Source: an uncultured Chloroflexia bacterium (GTDB lineage: Bacteria; Chloroflexota; Limnocylindria; Limnocylindrales; CSP1-4). Taken from it: a DNA stretch of 64,000 nt. Under the pieces are notes generated by a model. The model was not told the origin of the DNA, did no database searches, and was given only the letters and a program-made list of their open reading frames with translations. The stretch lies in the NCBI GenBank assembly GCA_963746845.1, contig CAVVCZ010000004.1, forward strand, positions 64,001 to 128,000, written 5' to 3'. Below, piece by piece: positions 2,070 to 58,683 of the stretch. Both the position numbers and the translations under genes were made by a program. The first letter of the stretch is position 1. Every line of letters starts with the position of its first letter.

Positions 2070-2320
2070 GCCCGGACCATAGCAAAGGCACGTGCCCGCG
2101 CCCGCGCTTATGCCCCCTGAGCCCGCGCCCGTGCCCCGCGGCGCCGCAATTCCGTCATCCGACACTCACGCGAGCGTTAGGCGACAGGCTGGGGCCAGAT
2201 CGTCCATCCGTTAGCCGTCGACAGCTAACGGAGGCGAGAATCGCCGGTCAGTCGATGGCTAATGCGCGGGTGGCTGTCGTTTGACAGACTCCGGCCCGAA
2301 ACGAGGAGCCGGCGGACCGC

Positions 2321-3085
2321 CTACCCGACGGCGGCCGCCTCGGTGTCGACGGTCGCAGCCGCATCGTGCGCCGAACCATCTCCGCCGCCCGCCGTCCCTT
2401 CGACGTCGAGCAGGTAGCCGATCCCCTGGAACGTCCGGATCCGGCCCGGCTCGCCCGGCTTCGCACCGAGCTTGCGGCGGACGCGGCTGATCCACACGCG
2501 CAGGTACTGGAGGTCGTCGCGGTATTCCGGGCCCCAGACCTTCGTCAGGAGCTCCGTGTGGAGCACGACCTTGCCGGGGTGCGTCGCGAGATGCTGCAGG
2601 AGCAGCCACTCGGTGCGCGACAGCTGGACCAGCTCGCCGTTGCGGCGGACCATTCGCCGCTCCAGGTCGATCTCGACGTCGTCGAACGCGACCACGCCCG
2701 CTCCCGGCTCCACGCCCGTCGAGCGGCGGATGACCGCACGGACGCGCGCCGCGAGCTCGTCCGGATGGAACGGCTTGGCGATGTAGTCGTCGGCGCCGAG
2801 ATCCAGGCCCTTGGCCTTGTCGGCCGTGGCGCCCTTGGCGGTGAGCAGGATCACCGGTACGGGCCGCTGCTCGCGGAGCTGGCGCATGACCTCGATCCCG
2901 TCGAGGTCGGGCATGACGATGTCGAGGAGGACGATGTCCGGACGGATCTCCTCCGCCTTGGCGAGGGCATCCTCGCCGCCCGTCGCGGTGACGACGCGGA
3001 AGCCTTCCTCGCTCAGCGCGATCGAGACGAGCTTCGTGATTCGCGGTTCGTCGTCGGCGACGAGGACCAGCGGTTGGGTTCCCAC
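2321..3085 (-). CDS. OmpR-family response regulator (KdpE-like)
   Basis: VLVADDE, LLDIVMPDLDG, GADDYIAKPF, winged helix YLRVWISRVRRKL..GIGY; GGAGG before GTG. Confidence 0.92.
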   Translation of the reverse strand: MGTQPLVLVADDEPRITKLVSIALSEEGFRVVTATGGEDALAKAEEIRPDIVLLDIVMPDLDGIEVMRQLREQRPVPVILLTAKGATADKAKGLDLGADDYIAKPFHPDELAARVRAVIRRSTGVEPGAGVVAFDDVEIDLERRMVRRNGELVQLSRTEWLLLQHLATHPGKVVLHTELLTKVWGPEYRDDLQYLRVWISRVRRKLGAKPGEPGRIRTFQGIGYLLDVEGTAGGGDGSAHDAAATVDTEAAAVG

Positions 3086-46812: not shown

Positions 46813-47525
46813 CCGACCGGCACGAATCGGACCGTGTCGCCGGGGTGGAGGAGGGCCGGGTCCGCGGCGCTCGCGTCGAACAGATGCCGCTCCGTCCGCC
46901 CGATCAGGTTCCAGCCGCCGGGCATGGCCAGGGGATAGACCCCGGTCTGCTCACCGGCGATCGCGACGCTGCCCGCGGGCACCCGCTCACGGGGGCTGGC
47001 CCGTCGCGGGCTCACGAGCTCCCGCGGCAGCCCGCCGAGATAGGCGAACCCGGGCGCGAACCCGAGGAACAGCACGCGGTACCGCGTGCCGGCATGCAGT
47101 GCGATGACCTCGCTCGGCCGGAGCCCGCGGGCATCCGCGATCTCCTGGAGGTCCGGACCGTCCGCGCCGCCGTAGCGAACGGGGATCTCGACGACCCGCT
47201 CCGGAGCCGCGGCCGGGCCCTCGATCGTGAACGAGGCCAGGGCGGCGGTTGCCGCGTCGCGGACGAGCGCGATCGCCTCGGCCGCTTCGATCGCCAACGG
47301 GTCGAACGGGACGAGGACCGTGGAAACGGCCGGGACCGCGCGGCCGATCCGGTCCGGCTCCGGCCATCGCTTCCCCAGGTCGTGCGCGATGACGGCCGCC
47401 CGGGCGGCCATCCACGCGACCGGATCCGGGCCGGGCTCCGGCGGCCCGGCGACGGTCACGAGCAGCGCGGCGTCGCCGAACGGATCGATCCGGAGCACGT
47501 CGCGGTCCGGGGCGTCCTCAGCCAC
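46809..47525 (-). CDS. pxpB: 5-oxoprolinase subunit B
   Basis: [41 protein letters not shown]. Confidence 0.9.
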
Positions 47526-48291
47526 GGAACGCCGCCGGCCCGAGGCCCGCGGTCTCGAGGGCGGTCCGGACCGCGCGCGCCACCGCGACCGCGTCCGGAC
47601 TGTCGCCGTGGACGCAGATCGTGTCCGCGCGCACGGCGAGCGTGGAGCCGTCCCCGGCCGTCACGACGCCGTCACGCGCGATCGACACCGCCTGGGCGGC
47701 CGCCGCCTCGGGACCAAGGAGCGCGCCGTCGAGCCGCCGCGATCGAAGGGACCCGTCCGGCTCGTAGCAGCGATCCGCGAACGCCTCCTCCGCGACGCGC
47801 AGCCCCGCCGCCCGCCCCGCAACCACGGATGCCGAACCGGCGAGCCCCACGAGGACCAGCTTCGGGTCGAGATCGCGCACGGCCCGAGCGATCGTCTCGG
47901 CCATCGCGGGATCCCCGGCGGCCCGGTTGTACATCGCCCCGTGCGGCTTCACGTGGCCCACCCGACCACCGGCGACGCGGGCACCCGCGACCACCGCCCC
48001 CACCTGGACGACGAGCGTCGCCCGGAGCTCGTCCGGCGTCAGCTCGAGGTCGCGCCGGCCGAAGCCCGCCAGGTCCGGATACCCGGGATGCGCCCCGATC
48101 GCGACCCCGTGGCGGACCGCCAGGGCGGCCGTCCGGAGGATGGTGGTGGCGTCGCCGGCGTGGGCGCCACACGCGATGTTCACGCTCGTCACGAGCGGGA
48201 CGATCGCCTCGTCCATGCCCATCGGCCACGGCCCGAACGACTCGCCGACGTCGGCGTTGAGATCGATCGCGCGGCGCTCCGTCGTCGTCAT
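47518..48291 (-). CDS. pxpA: 5-oxoprolinase subunit A (LamB/YcsF)
   Basis: [48 protein letters not shown]; own TACGAT 7 nt before ATG. Confidence 0.92.
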
Positions 48292-48325
48292 CGACCGGAT
48301 CGTAGCGCCGGCCCGCCGGACCCGA

Positions 48326-51126
48326 TCAGCTCGGTGCGGGCGACTCGGGTGTCGACGGATCGGCGTCGGGGTGGGGGTCGGCGTCGGGGTGGGGGTCGGC
48401 GTCGGCACCGGCTCCGACGGTGGAGGCTCCGACGGCGGAGGCTCCTCGGACGGCGAGGCGCTCGGGGCGACCGACGGCGGCGCGCACGGCTCGAACACGA
48501 GGTTGGCCGACGGATCGGCGGACGGCACCGCGAACGACGGGACCACCCCGCTCGGGTCCGGCGTCGGGACCGGGTAGCAGGTGACCGAGGGGCTCGGCAT
48601 CGCGCAGCCATGACCGACGACGAGCGCGCCCCACGAGCTGCCGTACGGCCGGAACGCCCCGTTGTAGAAGTACTGCGTCCGGCTCTGGTTGACGCCGCCG
48701 CGGATCCCGGCGCCCTTCTCGGCGCGGGCGATCCAGTCCTCGTCGGCGGTCATCCAGTTCCTGAACCGGTTCTCCCAGATGCCGTTCATGCCGAGGACCT
48801 CGACGCCGCAGGTCCCGACCGGCACGCTGTCCTTCGGCTCGGTGCCCGCGATGTACCACTCGGTGATGGTCTTGCCGCCCGCGGCGGGCTTGAGGCCGGT
48901 GAACGGGTCGATCTTCGCCTGGGTCAGCCCGGTCGGGACCGCGAAGTCGTTGATCGGCCACTTCGCCGTCGCCTCCTGGAGGAAGCCCTGCCACATGTAC
49001 GTCGTGACGTCGAGCGAGACGACGTCGCCGACGACCGTGTTGTCGCTGTTCCCGGCCCACGCCCCGACCGCGAGCGCGTATTGCCCGTTTGTCCGCCCGG
49101 CCGCTGACGGCGGCGCGATGTAGCCGTAGGCGTTGAGGTCCTTGGCGTCGTTGTTGGTCCCGGTCTTGAGCGTGGCCGGCCGGTGCTTGTCGCCGGGCCC
49201 GGTCAGCTCGAACCTGCCCCAGTACGGGTTGATGTGCGGATCGGTGTTGCCCTCGAGGATGTCCGTGACGATGAACGATGCCTGCGGGCTGGCCGCCTGC
49301 GTGCCGTCGGGCGGCACGTACGGCGGGATGACGTCCGTGCCGGTCTGGTTCTTCACGGACAGGATCGTCGTGTGGCCGATGTTCTTGCCGCCGTTCGCCA
49401 GGGTTCCATAGGCGGTGACGAGGTCGACCGGTCGGACCTCCTGGACGCCGAGCGCGATCGCCGCGCCGGCGGTCGTCTTGTCCGTCTGGAAGACCATCCC
49501 GAAGTCCTGGGCCCTCGCGAACAGGTGGTCCGGTGAGTTCACGATCGCGGTCTTGACCGCGGGGATGTTCAGGGAGAACTGGAGGGCACTACGGACGCGG
49601 ACGGGGCCGCGCTCCTGGTTGTCGGCGTCGGCCGGCGTGTAGCCGCCGCCGAAGTCCGTGGACGTGTCCATGAACATCGAGCCCGCGGTGATCTGCTTGT
49701 CGTCGATCCCGGTCAGGTAGTTGAACGGCTTGAACGCGGACCCGGGCTGGCGGAAGCCGCTGCCCACGACGTCGAACTTCGCCTGGAACTGCTTCGTGCT
49801 CTTGGGCGCGTAGTAGTTCGCGCTGCCCACGTAGGCGACCAGCTCGCCGGTCTGGTAGTCGAGCGCGACCAGTGCCCCGTTGTGGACGTCCCTGCCGCGC
49901 AGGTTCTTCATCCATGAGGCGTAGCCGCCCGGGATCTTCAGGGTCTTCGCCAGAGCCGCCGGATCCTTGCTGTTCGGGACGACCGCCGCGGCCTGGACCC
50001 ACTTCTCGGCCAGCGCCTGGAGCTTCACGTCGAGCGTCGTCGTGATCGTCAGACCGCCCGCCACCAGCTCGTCGCAGGTCGGCACGCCCTGGCCGCAGAG
50101 CTTGTCCGCGAGCTCTGCCTGGACGGCCCAGACGAAGTGTGGAGCGACCCAGCGCGGCGTGACCTGGGGGACGATCACGACCGGGTCGTTCTCGGCCGCC
50201 CGGAGCTCGGCCGGCGTGTACTGGCCGCCCGACTGGGGCGTCCGGCCGGCGGCCAGCAGCTCGAGGATCTGGTTCCGGCGCTGGACGATCGCGGTGTCCG
50301 GCGGGACCACGAGCTCCGTGCCCTTGCCGGAGGCACAGGTGTCCTCCGTGTCGTCCGGGCTCGGCTCGATGCACTGCGGGACCGCGTTCTTCACCAGGTC
50401 GTAGTTGGATGGTGACTTCGGAAGGGCCGCGAGGATCGCGGCCTGGGCGGGCGTCAGCTTCGAGAGGTCGTCGACGCCGAAGTACGACTTGGCTGCGGCC
50501 TTCACGCCGTACGACTGGTTGCCGTAGTAGTTCTGGTTCAGGTAGGCGGCGATGATCTGCTGCTTGCCCTGGACACCGGGGAACGCCTCGGTCAGGCGGA
50601 TCGACTGGATGATCTCCTTGACCTTCCGCTCGAATGTCCGCTTCGGATCCTGGACGAGGTTCTCGGGCAGCAGTCGCTGACGGACGAGCTGCTGGGTAAT
50701 CGTCGAGGCGCCGCGGCTGTTGCCGCGCAGGCCGTCGATCCCGGCCGAGATGATCGCGAGCGGGTCGAAGCCGGCGTTGTCCCAGAACGTCTTGTCCTCG
50801 ACCGCGGTCTGGGCGTCGATGACGATCGCCGGGATCTGGTCGAACGGGACGACGTCCCGCCGCTCCCCGCCGAACCGGGCCAGCTCGACCTTGCCGGTCC
50901 GGTCGTAGATGACCGACTGCTCCGAGAACGTGATCTTGTCGAAGTCGCCGACGGGCGGGAGACCGTCGGTCATTCGAGAGAAGGCCGCGACGACGCCGAC
51001 GGCGCCGAGGAACGCGATGATCGCGAGCCCGGCCCAGATCGCGAGGGCGATCCAGCCGGCGACGGACGGGGTCGTCCGGAGAGGGACGGCGCGGGCGGGC
51101 CGCGTCGGGCGAGGGGCGTCGTACAA
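48326..51126 (-). CDS. Class A penicillin-binding protein (transglycosylase/transpeptidase); frameshift near 48357
   Basis: VEDKTF, GASTITQQL, RKVKE, RQPGSAFK (SxxK), SLN, KTGT; Pro/Thr tail ending PSTPESPAPS*; TTG start after GGAG. Confidence 0.9.
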
Positions 51127-51351
51127 GCGTGAGCTCCGGGGACGGGTGGTCTGCGGAAGGATGCCATCGCCCGGTGAGAACGTGCAGGCGAGGGGTGGCG
51201 GTCGTCCCTGGGACGCGGTGACGGCCCGAGCTGTGGCGTTCCACGGTTCCCGCCGGTCCACCGCGGTTCGCCCGATGGCTCCGTCAGCCGGGAGTCGCTC
51301 GGACCGCTACCGTTGTGGCGAGTCGTCAACACAGCGGAGCAGCGAGGTGAG

Positions 51352-52458
51352 ATGGGCAACGCGGATCCAGGCAAACCGCTTCGCGGCCCGGGCGAACCGA
51401 CCCTCATGCGCGGGGAGATCGAGGCGATCCCGGCCGTTGTCGCCCGGTTCCTGGACGACGGGGCGGCCGAGGTCGGCATCGCCGCGGCGGCCGTCCGGTC
51501 TGCGGATCCGCGGTTCGTGGCGATCGTCGCTCGCGGCACCTCGGATCATGCCGCGATCCATCTGCGCTATCTGATCGAGACGGAGCTCCGGATCCCGACC
51601 GGGCTGGCGGCCCCATCGGTCACGACGCTGTACGGCACCGAGCTCCGCTGGCGCGGCGGGCTCGTCATCGCCGTCTCGCAGAGCGGGCAATCGCCGGACC
51701 TCGTCGCGGTCGTCGAGGCCGCACGCGCGGGCGGGGCGACGACCATCGCCATCGCCAACGACGCCCGGTCACCGCTCGCGGGGGCGGCCGAGCACGTCAT
51801 CGACTGCCGGGCAGGGGAGGAGCAGTCCGTCGCCGCCACGAAGTCGTACGTCGCGCAGCTGGCGGCCGGGGCCGCCCTGGTCGCCGCCCTGGCGCCTCGA
51901 TCGCCGCTGGCCTTGGCATTGCCGTCGATGCCGGAGGTCCTTGCCCTGGCGCTCGCCGAGGCGTCCTCCGCGGTGGCGGATGACGCGGTGATCGTTGCGG
52001 AGTTCGCCGCCTCGGAGCGCTCGATCGTGATCTCGCGGGGCTACGACTACCCGACGGCCCTCGAGACGGCCCTGAAGCTCAAGGAGACGGGACGGCTGTT
52101 CGCCGAGGGCTACTCGTCGGCCGACTTCAGCCACGGACCGGTCGTCCTGAGCGGGCCAGGCGTACCCGTCCTCGCGATCCGGCCGAACGGCCCGGTGGGT
52201 CGGGCCGTCGACGAGGGGATCGACGCGGCCCGGGCCGCGGGCGGGCGCCCGTGGGTGATCGCGGGCGCGGACGTCGGTGCCGCCGCCGATGCCGACGATC
52301 GGATCCTCCGACTGCCGCTGTCGGCGGATCTCCCCGATGGGTTGGCGCCCCTGGCGACGATCCTGCCCGGCCAGCTGCTCGCGGAGTCGGTCGCCCGCCG
52401 TCGGGGATTCGATCCCGACGCGCCCCCAGGGCTCCGGAAGGTGACCCTGACGCGCTGA
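51352..52458 (+). CDS. Double-SIS domain protein (GlmS isomerase-like / glucosamine-6-P deaminase)
   Basis: ARGTSDHAA, SQSGQSPD, VAATKSY, ETALKLKE, HGP, C-terminal PDAPPGLRKVT; no glutaminase domain. Confidence 0.88.
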   Translation: MGNADPGKPLRGPGEPTLMRGEIEAIPAVVARFLDDGAAEVGIAAAAVRSADPRFVAIVARGTSDHAAIHLRYLIETELRIPTGLAAPSVTTLYGTELRWRGGLVIAVSQSGQSPDLVAVVEAARAGGATTIAIANDARSPLAGAAEHVIDCRAGEEQSVAATKSYVAQLAAGAALVAALAPRSPLALALPSMPEVLALALAEASSAVADDAVIVAEFAASERSIVISRGYDYPTALETALKLKETGRLFAEGYSSADFSHGPVVLSGPGVPVLAIRPNGPVGRAVDEGIDAARAAGGRPWVIAGADVGAAADADDRILRLPLSADLPDGLAPLATILPGQLLAESVARRRGFDPDAPPGLRKVTLTR

Positions 52459-52504
52459 GATCGGGTCGCACGACGACCTCGCGACGCGCGTGTATCGTGG
52501 CCGC

Positions 52505-53182
52505 GTGATCGTCCTCACGACGCCGCGACTGGCCCGGTTCGGACGGCTCGCACGGCTTGCCGTGCTCCTGCTGTTCGCCCTGTTCGTCGCGCATGACGCC
52601 GTGTACGTCGCCCAGTACGGGTTCGGCGCCCGCTATGCGGCCGCGATGACGGCTGTCGGCCACGATGCGTGGTTCGCGCCGGCGTCGCTGATCATCGGAT
52701 CGATCGCTGCCCTCGTGGCCACGGTGGCCGTCCTGCGCCTCGGCCGCCTCACGATCCGCTCGTCGTCCGTTCCGTGCGCTGGATCCGCGTTCATCGACGT
52801 CGGTCCGAGCTACCTGCAGGAGCTGCGCTCGACGTGGCTGCGGCTGTTCCCGGCCGTCGTGGTCCTGTTCACGCTCCAGGAGAACGCGGAGGCCGCGCTC
52901 TCCGGACACCCGATCCCCGGGCTGGACCTCCTGTTCGGCGCGGGGAGTGGCCTGGTACTCCCGATCCTCGCGATGGTGACGTTCCTCCTCGCGGTCCTCG
53001 GCGCCGCCGTCCGGTGGCGGACGCGGGTGCTGCTGGCCCGAGCGAGGATCACCCGCCGCCATCCGCGACCCGCCGGTCGACGTGTCGCTCCGGCGTGGGT
53101 CGCCTCGTGCGCGGCGGTCGCGCACGAATGGATGCTCGACCGGCTCGACGCCGGTCGAGCGCCTCCGCAGATCGCCGTCTGA
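52505..53182 (+). CDS. 4-TM membrane protein with C-terminal RAPP motif; putative arrest-peptide leader
   Basis: Four hydrophobic segments with AHD, GHD.W, QEN.E and GH; ends GRAPPQIAV*; TATCGT 6 nt before GTG. Confidence 0.75.
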   Translation: MIVLTTPRLARFGRLARLAVLLLFALFVAHDAVYVAQYGFGARYAAAMTAVGHDAWFAPASLIIGSIAALVATVAVLRLGRLTIRSSSVPCAGSAFIDVGPSYLQELRSTWLRLFPAVVVLFTLQENAEAALSGHPIPGLDLLFGAGSGLVLPILAMVTFLLAVLGAAVRWRTRVLLARARITRRHPRPAGRRVAPAWVASCAAVAHEWMLDRLDAGRAPPQIAV

Positions 53183-53274
53183 TCGGGATCTGACCGGCGG
53201 CTCGGATGCCGCCGTTGGCGAGCGCCGCATGTCGGCGGTTCGCCGTGACTGTCCGCTGATCGCGGACCGGAGGT
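53161..53274 (+). promoter_or_regulatory. Putative SD-sequestering multibranch RNA structure
   Basis: GCCTCCG (53161-53167) pairs with CGGAGGT (53268-53274) and encloses four hairpins. Confidence 0.6.
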
Positions 53275-53281
53275 CATGTAC

Positions 53282-53885
53282 ATGTATCCATCGCCTCGGG
53301 CCGGCCGTGTCCGGCTGGCCTTCATCGCTGCCATCGGGCTGGCAGCGCTTGCCGTTGGCACGGCCGCCGCGCACGAGGAGCGCACGGTCGCCGGCTATGA
53401 CATGGAGGTCGGGTTCATCAATGAGCCGGTCTTCGTCGGCGACAAGAGCGGTCTCGAGTTCTTCGTCCACAAGGGCGACACGCCGGTCGAGGGCCTCGAG
53501 ACGACCGTGAAGGCCCAGGTCATCTATCAGGGCCAGAGCCGCGACCTGCCGATCTCGGCGCGCGAGGACGACCCGGGCGCCTACGAGTCGCAGTTCATTC
53601 CCACCGCCGCGGGTCCGTACACGTTCCACCTGACCGGCACGATCGAGGGGACGGCGATCGACGAGACGTTCACCTCGAGTCCGACCGGGTTCGACGAGGT
53701 CAAGGATCAGGCGAGCGGCCAGTTCCCCGTGCAGTTCCCGTCGCAGGCCGACATCGTCGCCGATGCCCAGGCCGGCCGGAACGCCGCGAACCAGGTGACG
53801 ATCGCACTGGTCCTCGGTGCCGCCGGGCTGCTCTTCGGCCTGATCGGGACCGGTCTGGCGATCTGCCGCGCGGCGGTCGCGCTGA
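53282..53885 (+). CDS. Exported YtkA/FixH-like protein, predicted N-terminal His after signal cleavage, C-terminal TM (frameshift near 53864)
   Basis: AAA-HEERTV, PVEGL, PGAYESQFIPTAAGPYTFH; ends AARRSR* in the shifted frame. Confidence 0.7.
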
Positions 53886-53890
53886 TCGTT

Positions 53891-55708
53891 GTGTCCATCC
53901 GCCGCGGGGTGCTCCTCGCGCTCTGGGCTGCCGTCGCGACCGGCTCGATCCTCGGACCGCCTCGCGGCGGCGGTCGCGGGCCACTCGCAGCTCGTCGCCA
54001 GCGTCCCGGCGGCGGGCGACGTGGTCGCCTCGCCACCGGCGGCCATCCTGCTGACCTTCTCGGAGCCGATCGATCCGGCCCACACATCGCTCGACCTGCT
54101 CGGCGGCGACGGGGCGGTCATCGCGTCCGGGCTCGGCTCGGTCGCTCCGGGCGACGATCACACGCTCCTCGCACCGCTGCCCGACCTGGCGACGGGGACC
54201 TACACGGTCAACTGGCGGGCGTTGTCGGCGGCCGACGGCCACAACACGTCCGGAACCTTCAGCTTCGGCGTCGGCGACGTCAGCCCGCCGCCGCTGTCGG
54301 CGGATGCCGGATCGGCCGGATCGCTCCACGCCGGCCACGACGCAGGGACGGTCCTCCTGGAGACGGAATCGCGGATCGTCGGCGATCTCGGCCTGATGGT
54401 CGCCGCGGGCCTGCCGGTCATCGGCTGGCTCGTCCTGCGCCGAACGGATTCACGGCGGGCTGGCTCGCGCCGCGGCATTCGGACTGTTCCTCGCGGCCGT
54501 GCGGCGCGGTCGGGATGCTCCTCCTCGGCGGGCCGGCGAGCGGCATCGACGTCGCGGCGTTCGTCGGGACCCACAGCGGCACGCTCGTCCTCACCCGGCT
54601 GGCGATCACCGCACTGGCCTGCGTCGTCGTCTGGTGGCTCGCGACCCGTCGGTCGCGAGCCGCGCTCGTCGTCGCCGGGGCGGCGGCCGTCGCCGGCCTC
54701 GTGCTCGTGGCGCTCGGCGGGCACGCCGCCGCGTTCAGCAGCGCGGCGCCGGTCGCGGCGACGGTCGTCCATCTCGTGGCCGCCTCGATCTGGGTCGCCG
54801 GCCTCGCGACGCTGGGCTGGCTCGCGATCCTGCCGGAGCACGCTCCGGCCGAGTTCGCCACCCTCGTGCCGCGGTTCTCGGGCGTCGCGATCGTGTCGAT
54901 CGGCCTGGTGAGCGCCACCGGGATCTACGCCGATTGGCTCCAGACCGGGTCGCTCCTCTCGCTCGAGACGCCGTACCAGGCGACCCTGGCCGTGAAGATC
55001 GGCCTGACGGTTGCGGCCCTCGCGATCGGCTGGCTGAACTACCGAGCGGCCGGTCGCGACCGGCGATTCGGCCCACGCGTCTTCCTCGAGGGGGCGCTCG
55101 CCCTCGGCGTCATCGTCGCAACCGGCATCCTCGCGAGCGGCTCGCCGCCGGGTCAGGCCGCGCCGATCCCGATCGCCAGCGTCGCGTCGAGCGCGCTCGA
55201 CGCGGGCAGCGCCGAGCTCGGGATCGCGCCGGGCCGGCCCGGTCCGACGCAGTTCACCGTGAAGCTTCCGACGGCCCCTGTCGCCGATGCGACCGTGGAG
55301 CTGGACCTGAGCCGGCTCGACCAGGCCGGTGAGACGCGCCTGCCCCTGCGGCCCGAGGCGGACCGGCTGACGTGGATCGCGCCGGGCGGCCTGCTGCCGG
55401 CCAACAGCCAGTTCGACGCGAACGTCATCGTCCGGAACGGCGCGGGCGTCGAACAGAGCCGGACCCGGTTCACGTTCGCCCTCGACGACGAGACGATCAT
55501 CGCGGGACGGGCCGAGCCCCCACTGGACCCTGTCGCGATCGTCGTCGCGGCCCTGATCGGGGCGGCTCTCGTCGGCGGACTCCTCCTGGTCGCCGGCCGG
55601 ACGCTGCCGGCGACGGACCGCCGGGCGGGACGCGTGGCGTTGCTCGGCGGGTCGGTCGTGTCGCTGGTGCTGGGGATTGTCGTGCTCGCCGGAGGGCTGC
55701 ACCCATGA
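53891..55708 (+). CDS. CopC-CopD copper uptake/resistance fusion (frameshifts near 53960 and 54500)
   Basis: CopC HSQLVASVP..LTFSEP..YTVNWRALSAADGH; CopD GHAA, HLVAASIWVAGL, RFS, TG, TPY..L.VK. Confidence 0.85.
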   Translation: MSIRRGVLLALWAAVATGSILGPPRGGGRGPLAARRQRPGGGRRGRLATGGHPADLLGADRSGPHIARPARRRRGGHRVRARLGRSGRRSHAPRTAARPGDGDLHGQLAGVVGGRRPQHVRNLQLRRRRRQPAAAVGGCRIGRIAPRRPRRRDGPPGDGIADRRRSRPDGRRGPAGHRLARPAPNGFTAGWLAPRHSDCSSRPCGAVGMLLLGGPASGIDVAAFVGTHSGTLVLTRLAITALACVVVWWLATRRSRAALVVAGAAAVAGLVLVALGGHAAAFSSAAPVAATVVHLVAASIWVAGLATLGWLAILPEHAPAEFATLVPRFSGVAIVSIGLVSATGIYADWLQTGSLLSLETPYQATLAVKIGLTVAALAIGWLNYRAAGRDRRFGPRVFLEGALALGVIVATGILASGSPPGQAAPIPIASVASSALDAGSAELGIAPGRPGPTQFTVKLPTAPVADATVELDLSRLDQAGETRLPLRPEADRLTWIAPGGLLPANSQFDANVIVRNGAGVEQSRTRFTFALDDETIIAGRAEPPLDPVAIVVAALIGAALVGGLLLVAGRTLPATDRRAGRVALLGGSVVSLVLGIVVLAGGLHP

Positions 55709-56364
55709 GTCTCGGTGCGATCGTCGGAATCCAGCTGGCGCTGGTCGGCCTCGTGGCTTTCGGGCTGGCGCCGCGGATGCGCCGGCGGTGGCCCGCGACG
55801 GGCGCCCTTGCGGCGATCCTGCCGAGCCTCCTGCTCATCGGCGGCATCGGCCTGGCCCTCGTCGACACGGTCGGCGGAGCCACGCCGGACTCGTCGCTGC
55901 CGAACCCTGTCCCAGCTACCGTGACCTCCGTCGACGCAGGAAACCGCCTGTATCAGGCCAACTGCGCGGCCTGTCACGGCGTCGGTGGGGAGGGGGGCGG
56001 ACCGCTGGCGAATACGACCCCGATCCTGCCTCCGTCACTCAAGGCCCACCTCTCCCAGCACACCGACGGAGACCTCTTCTACTGGCTCACGAACGGACTG
56101 CCGGGTGGGATGCCGGCGTGGGCCGGGACACTGTCCGAGACGGACCGGTGGAACGTGATCAACTACCTCCGGGCGATCAACCAGCCTGATGCCTCGATCG
56201 TCCCCGCATCCCTCGTCCCGTCGGCTTCCGTCGCTCCCGACTCGGCTCGCCCGAGCGCCGACGGCTCGAGCGGCACGCTGCTCGCGATCGTCGCCCTCCC
56301 GTCCGCCTGGTCGACGCTCCTGGTCGGGCTGCTGTCGGTCCGCTGGCGGCGACGCCGTCGCTGA
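55705..56364 (+). CDS. Membrane-anchored monoheme cytochrome c
   Basis: NPVP..YQANCAACHG..GEGGG, HTDGDLFYW, GMPAW; ATGA overlap with copCD. Confidence 0.88.
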   Translation: MSLGAIVGIQLALVGLVAFGLAPRMRRRWPATGALAAILPSLLLIGGIGLALVDTVGGATPDSSLPNPVPATVTSVDAGNRLYQANCAACHGVGGEGGGPLANTTPILPPSLKAHLSQHTDGDLFYWLTNGLPGGMPAWAGTLSETDRWNVINYLRAINQPDASIVPASLVPSASVAPDSARPSADGSSGTLLAIVALPSAWSTLLVGLLSVRWRRRRR

Positions 56365-56394: not shown

Positions 56395-58134
56395 TCAGGA
56401 GCCGTCGGCCGGGACGGCGAACCGGACGACGCCGTCGGGATCCGTGAACGCGATGAACGTGTTCGCGACGGTGTCCCGGACGGTGCCTTCGAGATGGCCG
56501 GAGCGTGTCGAACCCGAGGCAAGGTCTCCCTCCTCGAGACCACCCGTCGCCGGCGAACGGAGCACGACGTCCTCGCCCTTGGATGTGATCAAGGTCCAGG
56601 CCGAGGGATCGACGTCGAAGGGGTCGGGACCGTCGTTCCGGTAGCGGACGTCGATCGTCAGCCGGGTTCCGGCCGAGGTCTTCAGACGATCGATGGATGT
56701 CACGGTGATCTCCAAGGACTCGCCATCGATCGAAACGGCGTAGGGCGCGCCTTCCGAGACGATGTCGGGGTTGCTGCTCGCCTGGCTTGCGGCCGGTTCG
56801 TCCGTCGGCAGCGGTGCGTTGTCCGGCGGCGACTGTTGGTCCGGCGACTCCCGCCCGCTGTCGGGCCCTGGGATCGAGGATGGACCGAGCTGGTCCACGG
56901 GGATGGACGCACGGCCCTGGCCGAGTGGCATGACGGCGGTGGCGGCGAGGGCGACGGCGACCACCCCGGTCGCGACACCCACGCCCGCCAGTGCGCGTCG
57001 GTCGGTGACCCGATCCCGGCCGACCCGGGATCGATCGAGGAGGAGCGCGGCGACGACCGTCGTCAGCGGAACCGCCGCGAGGATCCCCATGCTCCCGACG
57101 AGGGTCCGGATCACCTCGGTCGCGACCTCTTCCGAGTTGAGGGTGAGCGCCGCCGGCTGGTTGCTGACGATGATCGTCACGAGCAGCGGCAGGCCGACTC
57201 CGACGTACGCGAGGAACAGCGTGTTGACCGTCGCCGCGATGTGCGAGCGGCCGACGTCGAACCCGGCCCGGAACAGCCCGCGTCCGGTCGCGCCGTGCTC
57301 GACGAGCTGCTCGACGAGCCTCGCCTGGGTCACGGTCACGTCGTCGAGCACGCCGACGGCGCCGAGGATGAACGCCGCGAGCAGCAGGCCCCGGAGGTCC
57401 AGGCCGTTCCCGTCAGACGTCTGCAGGAACGCGAGATCCGACCCCGCTGAATATGTGAACGATGCGAGCGCGGTCGCCGCGGCGCCTAGGAGACCGGACA
57501 GCGCGAGCGATGCGGACGTGCCGAGGATCGCAGCGCCGCTCGCGCGGGACCACCCCTCGGTCAGCAGGATCGTGACGATGGTGACGACCGTCGCCGTCAC
57601 CACGGCCAGCGGCACCGGCGCGTAGCCCGCGATCACGAGCGGCAGGAGGACCTTGAGGATCAGGGCAATGGTCAGCCCCAGCGCGAGCAACGCGCGGACC
57701 CCGCGAACGCCGCCCACGACCACGACGGCGACCGCGAACAGGAGGACGAATGCGCCGAGCAGCGGGGCCCGCCAGCGATCGGCGACCGCGACGTACGGCT
57801 GGCCGCCGGCATCGAGCGTGGTGGTGACGACCACCTCGTCGCCCGGCTGGTAGTTCGCCACGATCTGCGAGCCACCCGGACCCTCGAGATAGGCCTGCAC
57901 GGTCTGACCTGCCTTCGGGCCATCCAGCAGCAGGACGTTGGCGTAGGGCGGTCGGAAGGCTTCGTCGGCCCGCGGGGGCACGATCTCGACGATCCGGCCA
58001 TGGCGGGCGTCGACGGCCTGGTTGTCGGTCGTCACGTGCGGGCCGATGTCAGGGATCAGGGCGAGCAGGAGGATCGCAGCGACCGCGAGCAGGGGCGCAA
58101 GGACGGCGCGGCTGAACGACGAATCGGACGTCAT
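56395..58134 (-). CDS. YibE/F family membrane protein with C-terminal extracellular Ig-like (DUF4352-like) domain
   Basis: GAVGVLDDVTVTQ, VGRSHIAATVNTLFLAY, EVIRTLVGS.G, then P/S linker and YRNDG..F..DP..WTL. Confidence 0.88.
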   Translation of the reverse strand: MTSDSSFSRAVLAPLLAVAAILLLALIPDIGPHVTTDNQAVDARHGRIVEIVPPRADEAFRPPYANVLLLDGPKAGQTVQAYLEGPGGSQIVANYQPGDEVVVTTTLDAGGQPYVAVADRWRAPLLGAFVLLFAVAVVVVGGVRGVRALLALGLTIALILKVLLPLVIAGYAPVPLAVVTATVVTIVTILLTEGWSRASGAAILGTSASLALSGLLGAAATALASFTYSAGSDLAFLQTSDGNGLDLRGLLLAAFILGAVGVLDDVTVTQARLVEQLVEHGATGRGLFRAGFDVGRSHIAATVNTLFLAYVGVGLPLLVTIIVSNQPAALTLNSEEVATEVIRTLVGSMGILAAVPLTTVVAALLLDRSRVGRDRVTDRRALAGVGVATGVVAVALAATAVMPLGQGRASIPVDQLGPSSIPGPDSGRESPDQQSPPDNAPLPTDEPAASQASSNPDIVSEGAPYAVSIDGESLEITVTSIDRLKTSAGTRLTIDVRYRNDGPDPFDVDPSAWTLITSKGEDVVLRSPATGGLEEGDLASGSTRSGHLEGTVRDTVANTFIAFTDPDGVVRFAVPADGS

Positions 58135-58180
58135 CGGGCGGAGCGTACTCCCGTGGGGCCCCGGACGCCCGGGGCGATAC

Positions 58181-58195
58181 TGAGACTCAGTCTCG
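58181..58195. promoter_or_regulatory. Fur/Zur-type 7-1-7 box
   Basis: TGAGACT-C-AGTCTCG between divergent yibE/F and zur. Confidence 0.7.
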
Positions 58196-58230
58196 ACAAC
58201 GACGGGCTAGCAGCCAGTACCATCCGCCTC

Positions 58231-58683
58231 GTGGACGACACAAACCCCATCGTCGCGGCGCTCGATCAGGCGGGCTACAGGATCACGGCGCCGCGACGCG
58301 CGCTCGCCGACCTCATCGTCGACCACGACGGCCACTTCACGGCATCGGATCTCGCGACAGCCGCCCGGGATCGACGGGCCGGGATCAGCCGCGCGACGCT
58401 GTTCCGGGCCCTGGACCTGCTCGTCGAGCTCGGCGTGGTGGAGCGGCTCGACCTGCCGAACGGCGACCACGCCTACGTCCCGTGCGCCGCCGCTCATCAC
58501 CATCACGTCGTCTGCTCGCGCTGCGGGCGGACCGCCGAGGTCGACGACGCGGGTCTGACGGACGCCGTCCGGGAGATCGCCCGGACGAGCGGCTTCCGGA
58601 TCGACACGCATCGACTCGAGCTGTTCGGGCTGTGCCGCCATTGCCAGGCCCGGACCGGCCACGAGCCGGTCGCGCGGGCCTGA
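58231..58683 (+). CDS. zur: Fur family regulator, probably Zur
   Basis: GYRITAPR, RATLFRAL, HHHHVVCSRCG, ELFGLCRHC; adjacent to Znu genes. Confidence 0.85.
   Translation: MDDTNPIVAALDQAGYRITAPRRALADLIVDHDGHFTASDLATAARDRRAGISRATLFRALDLLVELGVVERLDLPNGDHAYVPCAAAHHHHVVCSRCGRTAEVDDAGLTDAVREIARTSGFRIDTHRLELFGLCRHCQARTGHEPVARA

Follow-up and report, generated by a model that had tools for sequence, protein, structure and literature searches.

The 64,000-nucleotide (nt) stretch analysed here, called the window throughout (contig CAVVCZ010000004.1 of the uncultured Chloroflexia bacterium assembly GCA_963746845.1), carries a gene for a predicted four-helix membrane protein, denoted the leader below, that ends in a RAPP motif shortly before its stop codon and is followed on the same strand by genes with CopC, CopD and cytochrome c domains (Table 1). 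Coordinates are those of the window, and leader residues are counted from the GTG codon at 52490, where the longest form of the open reading frame (ORF; 52490..53182, forward strand, 230 amino acids) begins. An in-frame GTG at 52505 yields a protein of 225 amino acids with the N-terminus MIVLTTPRLA, and this codon was taken as the start because the N-termini of the homologs (MIVxTTPRLA) match there. The protein ends in ...LDAGRAPPQIAV, that is, ...DAGRAPPQIAV; the RAPP residues, 223-226 of the 230, are encoded by CGA GCG CCT CCG and separated by four codons from the TGA at 53180-53182. The GC content by codon position (0.745/0.541/0.866) is similar to that of the flanking genes. The first-pass annotation of this DNA, made from the letters alone, had reported an ORF of about 225 codons with four transmembrane segments and RAPP four codons before the stop; the ORF itself, the homolog N-termini and the helices modelled with AlphaFold2 confirm that this observation is real.

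Table 1. Features of the leader gene and of the gene cluster that follows it
Feature	Position	Strand	Description and basis
Leader/sensor gene	52505..53182	+	225 amino acids, four-helix membrane protein with C-terminal RAPPQIAV and stop; ORF, third-position GC 0.87, homolog N-termini, AlphaFold2 predicted local distance difference test (pLDDT) 89.8
Helix 1 (residues 12-43)	52523..52618	+	H35 and D/E36 in the outer half; AlphaFold2 model and alignment
Outer-loop helix (47-55, with M53) and helix 2 (59-92)	52628..52765	+	G57-H58-D59 at the outer end
Helix 3 (108-137)	52811..52900	+	Q130-E131-N132-x-E134 at the outer end
Helix 4 (156-189)	52955..53056	+	basic R175-W176-R177 stretch on the cytoplasmic side
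Cytoplasmic spacer, including C-terminal helix 201-217	53057..53155	+	sequence varies, length constrained
Putative arrest site, RAPP codons	53156..53167	+	GCCUCCG predicted to double as an anti-Shine-Dalgarno element; arrest register by analogy with the CruR toeprint (PMC12992588)
Tail QIAV and TGA stop	53168..53182	+	4 codons before the stop, non-conserved
Structured intergenic region	53183..53281	+	Shine-Dalgarno GGAGG at 53269-53273; next-gene starts 53276 and 53282
His-headed beta-sandwich protein, membrane-anchored	53282..53866	+	Ala-His at the predicted signal-peptide cleavage site is invariant; no stop ends the frame in this assembly
CopC domain	53889..54443	+	PF04234, E = 1.1e-21; fused with CopD in a single ORF in relatives
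CopD membrane domain	54500..55708	+	PF05425, E = 1.3e-9; frame differs from that of CopC here
c-type cytochrome, membrane-anchored	55705..56364	+	last gene of the cluster

The RxPP ending and the membrane domain

In an unfiltered alignment of 42 sequences, G222, R223, A224, P225 and P226 are each at least 90% conserved, and 173 of 188 proteins taken without filtering carry R[AGS]PP among their last 25 residues (167 RAPP, 4 RGPP and 2 RSPP; two of the 188 records are the window's own protein). The other 15 records are mainly truncations or fusions, two of them with RPPP. The expectation that a terminal R(A/G)PP would be conserved in homologs is thus borne out. Endings were also read from the model-matched ORFs of 52 DNA loci retrieved independently of the motif: 38 have RAPP, RSPP or RGPP, 8 have (R/Q/C)-R-P-P-P, and 6 have neither, five of these running into a contig end and one (L021) continuing into a CopD-like tail. 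Among distant Chloroflexota members, RSPP occurs in L038, L041, L042, L045 and L046, RGPP in L050, and an ending of the form ...LW(R/Q/C)RPPP in L036, L037, L039, L043, L044 and L047-L049, so that searches limited to RAPP or RGPP would overlook the RPPP-ending members. Three of the loci (L035, L039 and L049) lie in genomes flagged as unpublished (G145, G272 and G173).

Across the family, the residue between the Arg and Pro-Pro is A, G, S or P only. This restriction matches the arrest-inducing RxPP set given by Fujiwara et al. (EMBO J 2025, PMC12992588), which consists of the same four residues and in which, by mutagenesis, Gly has full activity and Ser and Pro have partial activity. The residues preceding the motif drift (DAGRAPP, NGVRAPP, HGLRAPP and others), and the tail that follows it consists of 1-16 unconserved residues and is never absent.

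Bacterial proteomes avoid few tetrapeptides as strongly as RAPP and RGPP, which in small proteins cluster near the C-terminus (PMC12992588). The background in the source genome was estimated from a crude set of 2233 ORFs (848,938 residues), in which the first start codon was used and N-termini are therefore often over-extended. In this set, RAPP was observed 18 times against 40.3 expected from composition (observed/expected 0.45) and RGPP 8 times against 28.4 (0.28), with the majority of the occurrences of both motifs within the first 90 residues. R[AG]PP falls among the last 10 residues in only two of the 2233 ORFs, namely, the leader and its paralog at G000:C4:1336245-1336991.

The membrane domain was modelled from an alignment of 147 sequences that had been pre-selected for a C-terminal RxPP and was accordingly used for other residues only. 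The AlphaFold2 model, with the pLDDT given in Table 1 and a predicted template modelling score of 0.78, comprises four long helices, a short loop helix and a C-terminal helix. The protein has Arg-rich stretches N-terminally, in the loop joining helices 2 and 3 and past helix 4, as would suit an arrangement in which its two ends are cytoplasmic. Several polar residues are nearly invariant among the 147 sequences: E131 (147), H35 (146), H58 (145), E134 (144) and N132 (142). Also conserved are the Trp at position 62 (135), Q130 (130) and, less strictly, M53 (102, with Leu in 32). Position 135 is His in 77 members and Ala in the window leader. Thus, the residues singled out in the first-pass annotation within VAHDA, GHDAW and QENAE are indeed conserved, with the exception of the His of SGHP (H140), which is kept in 12 of the 147 only. 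Given the predicted topology, the conserved His, Met and carboxylate residues would cluster at the outer ends of helices 1-3 and in the outer loop, where they could plausibly form an extracytoplasmic metal site. CxxC or CxxxC is present in 3 of the 147 members, and C96 and C207 are the only cysteines of the window leader.

The distance from the membrane domain to the motif is constrained. In 149 proteins, 88-98 residues separate QENxE from the motif Arg, and the Pro presumed to occupy the P site lies a median of 53 residues (mostly 47-55, range 44-67) beyond the end of the best-scoring hydrophobic 19-residue segment of helix 4, in agreement with the earlier estimate that RAPP lies about 50 residues past the fourth transmembrane segment, a spacing compatible with that segment residing in the membrane during arrest. 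The constrained spacer length is supportive only, because ordinary homology also gives constrained lengths.

Distribution and gene neighbourhoods of the leader family

A word-indexed search with the leader retrieved 42 proteins, and an exhaustive search of cluster representatives yielded 387 matches at E <= 1e-3, 198 at E <= 1e-10 and 18 at E <= 1e-30. The family is unannotated. Pfam (E <= 0.1) and NCBIfam gave no meaningful match to the leader protein; when 147 members were searched against Pfam one by one, no family was matched by more than one member, and none matched DUF2946, the family of CruR and CutF; a comparison of the leader model against the PDB with Foldseek gave no match at E <= 0.001; and a profile built from the 147-sequence alignment found no further or named relatives in the word-indexed database. 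The named members, including those obtained by cluster look-up, are all 'hypothetical protein' entries from metagenome-assembled Candidatus Limnocylindrales genomes. The nearest unnamed ESM Atlas clusters are assigned to Actinomycetota, Chloroflexota and Vulcanimicrobiota, and the commonest phylum of one near cluster is Actinomycetota. The literature searches made returned no paper on this particular family, and its motifs did not occur in the examined part of source data file 8 of PMC12992588.

Matches to the leader family were detected in 28 of 401 sampled Chloroflexota genomes, the source genome included, and are concentrated in five families. Several genomes carry more than one copy: six in G224, four in G124, three in G091 and two each in G082 and the source genome. 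The second copy in the source genome (locus L053, 2204-2992) ends in ...RRNGVRAPPSVRFAPV; its closest relatives elsewhere head CopC and CtaG genes. Next to it in the source genome comes an ORF of 639 codons that has a methyltransferase domain, and no copper gene was recognised there.

Gene neighbourhoods were compared across 51 related loci besides the window, seven of which could not be assessed because the ORF was cut by a contig end or less than 110 nt of downstream DNA was available. In 38 of the 44 assessable loci, copper-related genes lie directly downstream of the leader, an outcome in favour of the first-pass annotation, which had proposed adjacency to copC/copD as a test. A homolog of the gene for the beta-sandwich protein follows in 29 loci; in 24 of these CopC is also present, with CopD where the DNA extends far enough, and the other five have less than 830 nt of downstream DNA. 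Other copper-related neighbourhoods consist of CopC in L025, L027 and L028, followed by Caa3_CtaG in L025 and L027; two CopC genes in L046; a weak CopC match and a cupredoxin in L040; a cupredoxin and a BNR protein in L041 and L042; SCO1 and PCu(A)C in L051; and an ORF without assignment followed by an HMA-domain gene in L043. Among seven further paralog loci, L058 and L059 have CopC and CtaG, L062 an anchored ORF and CopC-CopD, and L064 CopC and a CopC-CopD-YtkA fusion; L060, L061 and L063 have no clear copper neighbour. The four copies in G124 (L026/L054, L051/L055, L058 and L059) head three kinds of modules, namely, CopC with CtaG twice, SCO1 with PCuAC, and BNR with redoxin. In G224 (L057, L060-L062), two leader copies stand head to head (L057, 1452-2177 on the reverse and 2226-3032 on the forward strand).

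The downstream cluster and the intergenic RNA

The first gene downstream starts 93-99 nt past the leader stop, at one of the two candidate positions in Table 1, and encodes a protein whose signal peptide ends in A30-H31, a pair invariant in 24 sequences. Its model consists of a beta-sandwich (residues 31-131, pLDDT about 95-98) and a C-terminal anchor helix. The closest structural neighbours are a DUF4426 protein (3uc2, E = 1.1e-4) and the Helicobacter pylori copper-resistance protein CrdA (9ll2, E = 2.3e-4, target TM-score 0.71), and FetP and FtrA are weaker ones. The protein matches neither YtkA nor YcnI (DUF1775, PF07987) in Pfam, and PF07987 was found nowhere in the source genome. From the model and its neighbours, it is plausibly a copper-binding protein with an N-terminal His, analogous to YcnI in position and anchoring and not a DUF1775 member. 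The description of the leader as lying about 100 nt upstream of YtkA-like, copCD and cytochrome c genes is therefore correct in the distance and in the last three genes, and the YtkA label has no Pfam support. The NCBIfam matches of the downstream CopC and CopD fall below the curated cut-offs.

As assembled here, the cluster contains frame breaks between 53850 and 54520. The sandwich frame stays open beyond about 53866, CopC changes frame between its signal peptide and its mature domain (around 53955), and CopC (to 54443) and CopD (from 54500) also differ in frame. In the relatives L001, L004 and L009, a separate sandwich gene is followed by a single CopC-CopD ORF, and the alignments show single extra bases in the window; a short-read contig from a related strain has a net of 2 fewer bases at 54449-54497. 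These breaks represent either consensus indel errors or recent decay. No RNA run was among the sequencing runs listed as containing this sequence. Four soil or sediment DNA runs from one study contain 5-10% of the sampled words, and their contigs cover only scraps; one odd read contig joins 52744 to 53097 via 38 other letters, from which we draw no conclusion, and the arrest site and the intergenic region are otherwise unbridged.

The RNA between the leader and the next gene is predicted to be structured, the segment 53130-53300 folding more stably than shuffled sequences (z = -3.8). In the minimum-energy fold, GCCUCCG at 53161-53167, the Ala-Pro-Pro codons of the motif, pairs with CGGAGGU, which contains the Shine-Dalgarno sequence of the next gene. 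The same pairing is predicted in a matched folding window for 4 of 7 loci (the window, L005, L006 and L007), all four with CCU as the first Pro codon. This rare codon occupies the first motif Pro in 17 of 46 loci, compared with 8.4% of the other Pro codons in the same ORFs, which speaks for the pairing. All folding windows predict a paired Shine-Dalgarno sequence; four of them include the arrest codons, which in three are its main partner (probability 0.63-0.94). When a ribosome footprint over the arrest site was blocked in silico, the probability of the Shine-Dalgarno sequence being unpaired rose from 0.14 to 0.44. An Rfam scan of 52300-53500 matched no family, so no known riboswitch or leader RNA, and consensus scans for promoters and terminators found no promoter-like or terminator-like site. 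A second anti-Shine-Dalgarno-like stretch, GCCUCGG at 53293-53299, lies within the first codons of the downstream gene and competes with the RAPP codons in the predicted folds.

Two neighbouring regions of the window may be mentioned. Beyond the cluster lie genes for a YibE/F-like membrane protein (56395-58134, reverse strand, E = 2.7e-56) and a Fur-family regulator (58000-58683, forward strand, E = 1.4e-27), which may form a second metal-related unit beside the copper operon. On the other side, at 47518-51261 on the reverse strand, a single 1247-codon frame joins a class A penicillin-binding protein (transglycosylase, transpeptidase and PT-repeat tail) to a LamB/YcsF (5-oxoprolinase subunit A) domain, which may be a genuine fusion or else reflect a further stop missing from the assembly.

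The leader as a candidate copper-responsive arrest protein

Copper switches of this kind were published in 2022-2025. Upstream ORFs (uORFs) ending in RAPP or RGPP are enriched upstream of genes of the YcnI family (280 RAPP against 91 AAPP), CopC (133 and 75) and PCu(A)C, and most of the YcnI-linked ones carry membrane segments (PMC12992588). RAPP/RGPP-dependent arrest was shown for seven Streptomyces lividans proteins. One of them, SLIV_18480, with four membrane segments and a copper site of three His and a Met (both predicted), lies upstream of a metal gene and arrests in a RAPP-dependent manner both in vitro and in Bacillus subtilis (PMC12992588). The leader shares with SLIV_18480 the four membrane segments, the conserved His (and Met), the RAPP near the C-terminus and a copper gene next on the same strand. 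It differs in that its family belongs to Chloroflexota (Limnocylindria and relatives), with all members coming from uncultured organisms, and in that its first downstream gene is not a Pfam YcnI. The family also appears to differ in sequence, in that the actinobacterial uORFs from PMC12992588 that were compared by eye lack the AHD/GHD/QENxE signature. The leader thus represents an unannotated family that probably belongs to a device type known from print, the membrane-embedded, His-rich RxPP arrest leaders heading copper genes, and its architecture is not new. The first-pass annotation, in proposing a new architecture without CxxC, is supported by the scarcity of Cys motifs and the lack of DUF2946, and it overstated the novelty, since membrane RAPP/RGPP leaders upstream of copper genes are described in PMC12992588.

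In CruR of Bordetella pertussis (Bp2923), for which arrest and a toeprint were shown (PMC12992588), copper acting via CxxC relieves the RAPP arrest, which leads to Rho termination (PMC9426467); in CutF of Rhodobacter capsulatus, stalling induced by copper opens a stem-loop that covers the ribosome-binding site of cutO (10.1101/2025.02.05.636593). In both cases, the output is thus exerted via the stalled ribosome. As in these two systems, the leader gene heads a copper-homeostasis operon and encodes a C-terminal stalling motif (RAPP in CruR, Pro-rich in CutF, putative here), and its nascent chain is proposed to sense extracytoplasmic copper, as those of CruR and CutF do. Unlike them, the leader has four helices instead of one signal or anchor segment, belongs to a family without DUF2946 in which CxxC and CxxxC are rare, and has His, Met and Glu, not Cys, as candidate ligands. 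The localization monitors ApdA/ApdP/ApcA (whose arrest chemistry is of the RAPP type; PMC10951233), SecM, MifM and VemP likewise combine an N-terminal membrane or secretion signal with an arrest site near the stop, upstream of the regulated gene, and force-sensitive release has been proposed for them. However, the genes downstream of these monitors are secDF, secA and yidC, in contrast to copper genes here, and the leader carries N-terminally a conserved four-helix domain, predicted to be folded, in which polar residues are invariant. The downstream cluster itself resembles B. subtilis ycnKJI in combining a membrane-anchored, His-headed beta-sandwich protein with a CopC-CopD fusion, and one paralog locus encodes CopC-CopD-YtkA. 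Control of ycnKJI is exerted by a transcriptional repressor, YcnK (PMC8424229); here, by contrast, the RAPP leader stands first, no gene for a repressor adjoins it, and the sandwich protein has no DUF1775 match.

These comparisons, together with the conserved ending and synteny, suggest that the leader is probably a RAPP-class arrest ('monitoring') protein with a regulatory role in cis; sensing of copper is suggested with somewhat lower confidence. From the computed gene, fold, conserved residues, spacing, synteny and RNA pairing, we infer the following scheme. The four helices would insert with both termini in the cytoplasm, bringing H35 and H58, usually with M53 and H135, together with E131, N132 and E134 on the extracytoplasmic face into a copper-binding site. 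Peptide-bond formation would stall once the ribosome has reached R223-A224-P225, with P225 in the P site and Pro226-tRNA in the A site, by analogy with CruR. Helix 4 would then be about 50 residues behind the peptidyl-transferase centre, the bundle already in the membrane and the tail taut in the exit tunnel. The stalled ribosome would cover GCCUCCG and free the GGAGG of the next gene, permitting translation of the His-sandwich, CopC-CopD and cytochrome c genes. Copper binding or folding of the bundle could alter the tension on the nascent chain and, hence, the lifetime of the stall. The preferred direction is that copper would release the stall and turn the operon down, because of the analogy with CruR and because most of the downstream genes serve copper acquisition or cuproprotein assembly.

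Several observations weigh against this interpretation. Six of the 44 assessable loci have no recognisable copper gene downstream or, in one case (L045), were unscanned; they include L026 (BNR and redoxin), L035 (a periplasmic binding protein), L038 and L049 (no Pfam match) and L052, the second copy in the source genome, followed by the ORF with the methyltransferase domain. Because the 147-sequence alignment was pre-selected for RxPP, the invariance of R223, P225 and P226 in it is circular and is not evidence. The frame breaks may mean that the downstream operon is not functional in this assembly. The prediction of the arrest codons as the partner of the Shine-Dalgarno sequence varies with the folding window and is not robust: in the folding window 53111-53300 these codons reach a pairing probability of only 0.13 and the stretch at 53293-53299 inside the next gene wins (0.7-0.85); in longer folding windows they pair with a Shine-Dalgarno-like stretch in only 12 of 46 loci; and when the first Pro codon is replaced by synonymous ones in silico, the Shine-Dalgarno sequence stays sequestered. 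The binomial p of 8.5e-8 for the enrichment of CCU at the first motif Pro is not a true probability and overstates independence, because the loci are related. Finally, a well conserved and confidently folded membrane protein of 225 amino acids could have a job of its own.

Under a first alternative, the protein is an ordinary structural or transport subunit for copper handling; it might, for instance, bind copper in the membrane as a partner of the sandwich protein or CopCD, and its RAPP tail would be an interaction or structural motif and any pause incidental at most. In favour of this, the membrane domain is conserved and confidently folded in the model, the gene is co-inherited with copper genes, and 225 amino acids is large for a leader. 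Nevertheless, we consider this improbable: the motif and its allowed variants equal the arrest-competent RxPP set, RAPP is avoided elsewhere in the genome, the motif always stands 1-16 residues before the stop while its surroundings diverge, and membrane RAPP proteins of similar size have been shown to arrest (PMC12992588). In addition, one and the same sensor-plus-RAPP module stands before different, unrelated copper cassettes, as would be expected of a portable regulator more than of a dedicated subunit. A monitor of membrane insertion by Sec or YidC, like MifM, SecM or ApdA, and not of copper, would account for the multi-pass topology, and the spacing between helix 4 and the arrest site is compatible with an insertion-force ruler. 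It would have no need of the invariant His, Glu and Asn on the outer face, and none of the 44 assessable loci has sec or yidC downstream; this reading was rejected on synteny and appears very improbable.

Two other alternatives retain the arrest and differ in its output or direction. The output could be transcriptional, as in CruR (PMC9426467), given that the pairing of the Shine-Dalgarno sequence with the arrest codons is fragile and absent from many loci, and that an intergenic region of 93-99 nt is long enough for a Rho-loading site. The lack of a terminator-like site in the scans, the predicted pairing of the Shine-Dalgarno sequence in all folding windows and the enrichment of CCU at the first Pro make this output unlikely in our estimate. 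The logic could also be the opposite of that preferred above, as in CutF (10.1101/2025.02.05.636593), with the copper-bound nascent bundle prolonging the stall and the downstream genes being induced; some paralogs precede genes for cupredoxins or HMA-domain proteins, and a rise in the expression of such genes with copper would make sense. However, most of the modules (CopC-CopD, CtaG, SCO1, PCuAC and the YcnI-like sandwich) serve copper acquisition or cuproenzyme assembly, and in B. subtilis, such copper-acquisition systems are on at low copper. The same holds for B. pertussis (PMC9426467). We therefore regard induction by copper as rather unlikely and retain release of the stall by copper as the preferred direction.

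In its most extended form, which we put forward tentatively as a possibility, the proposal is that the leader is a portable cis-acting sensor of extracytoplasmic copper, in which metal-dependent packing of the bundle, by then inserted in the membrane, would exert a pull on the nascent chain across it and so release an EF-P-resistant RAPP stall and the Pro-Pro codons would serve as the anti-Shine-Dalgarno element. The paralogs, up to six per genome, would each gate one copper module (import, oxidase assembly or cupredoxin) and jointly form a copper regulon free of transcription factors in uncultured soil Chloroflexota. The source of the pulling force in arrest peptides that do not monitor Sec or YidC is an open question of the field (PMC12992588). 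If the stall and its copper dependence prove true, the leader would provide a large, well-conserved and structurally well-predicted model family for this question, which would be testable here because the sensor bundle would be outside the ribosome at arrest, the candidate ligands are few and invariant, and the spacer is constrained. RAPP-type copper control, the concept of which is already published, would then extend to Chloroflexota, and hundreds of 'hypothetical' membrane proteins in soil metagenomes would gain a function.

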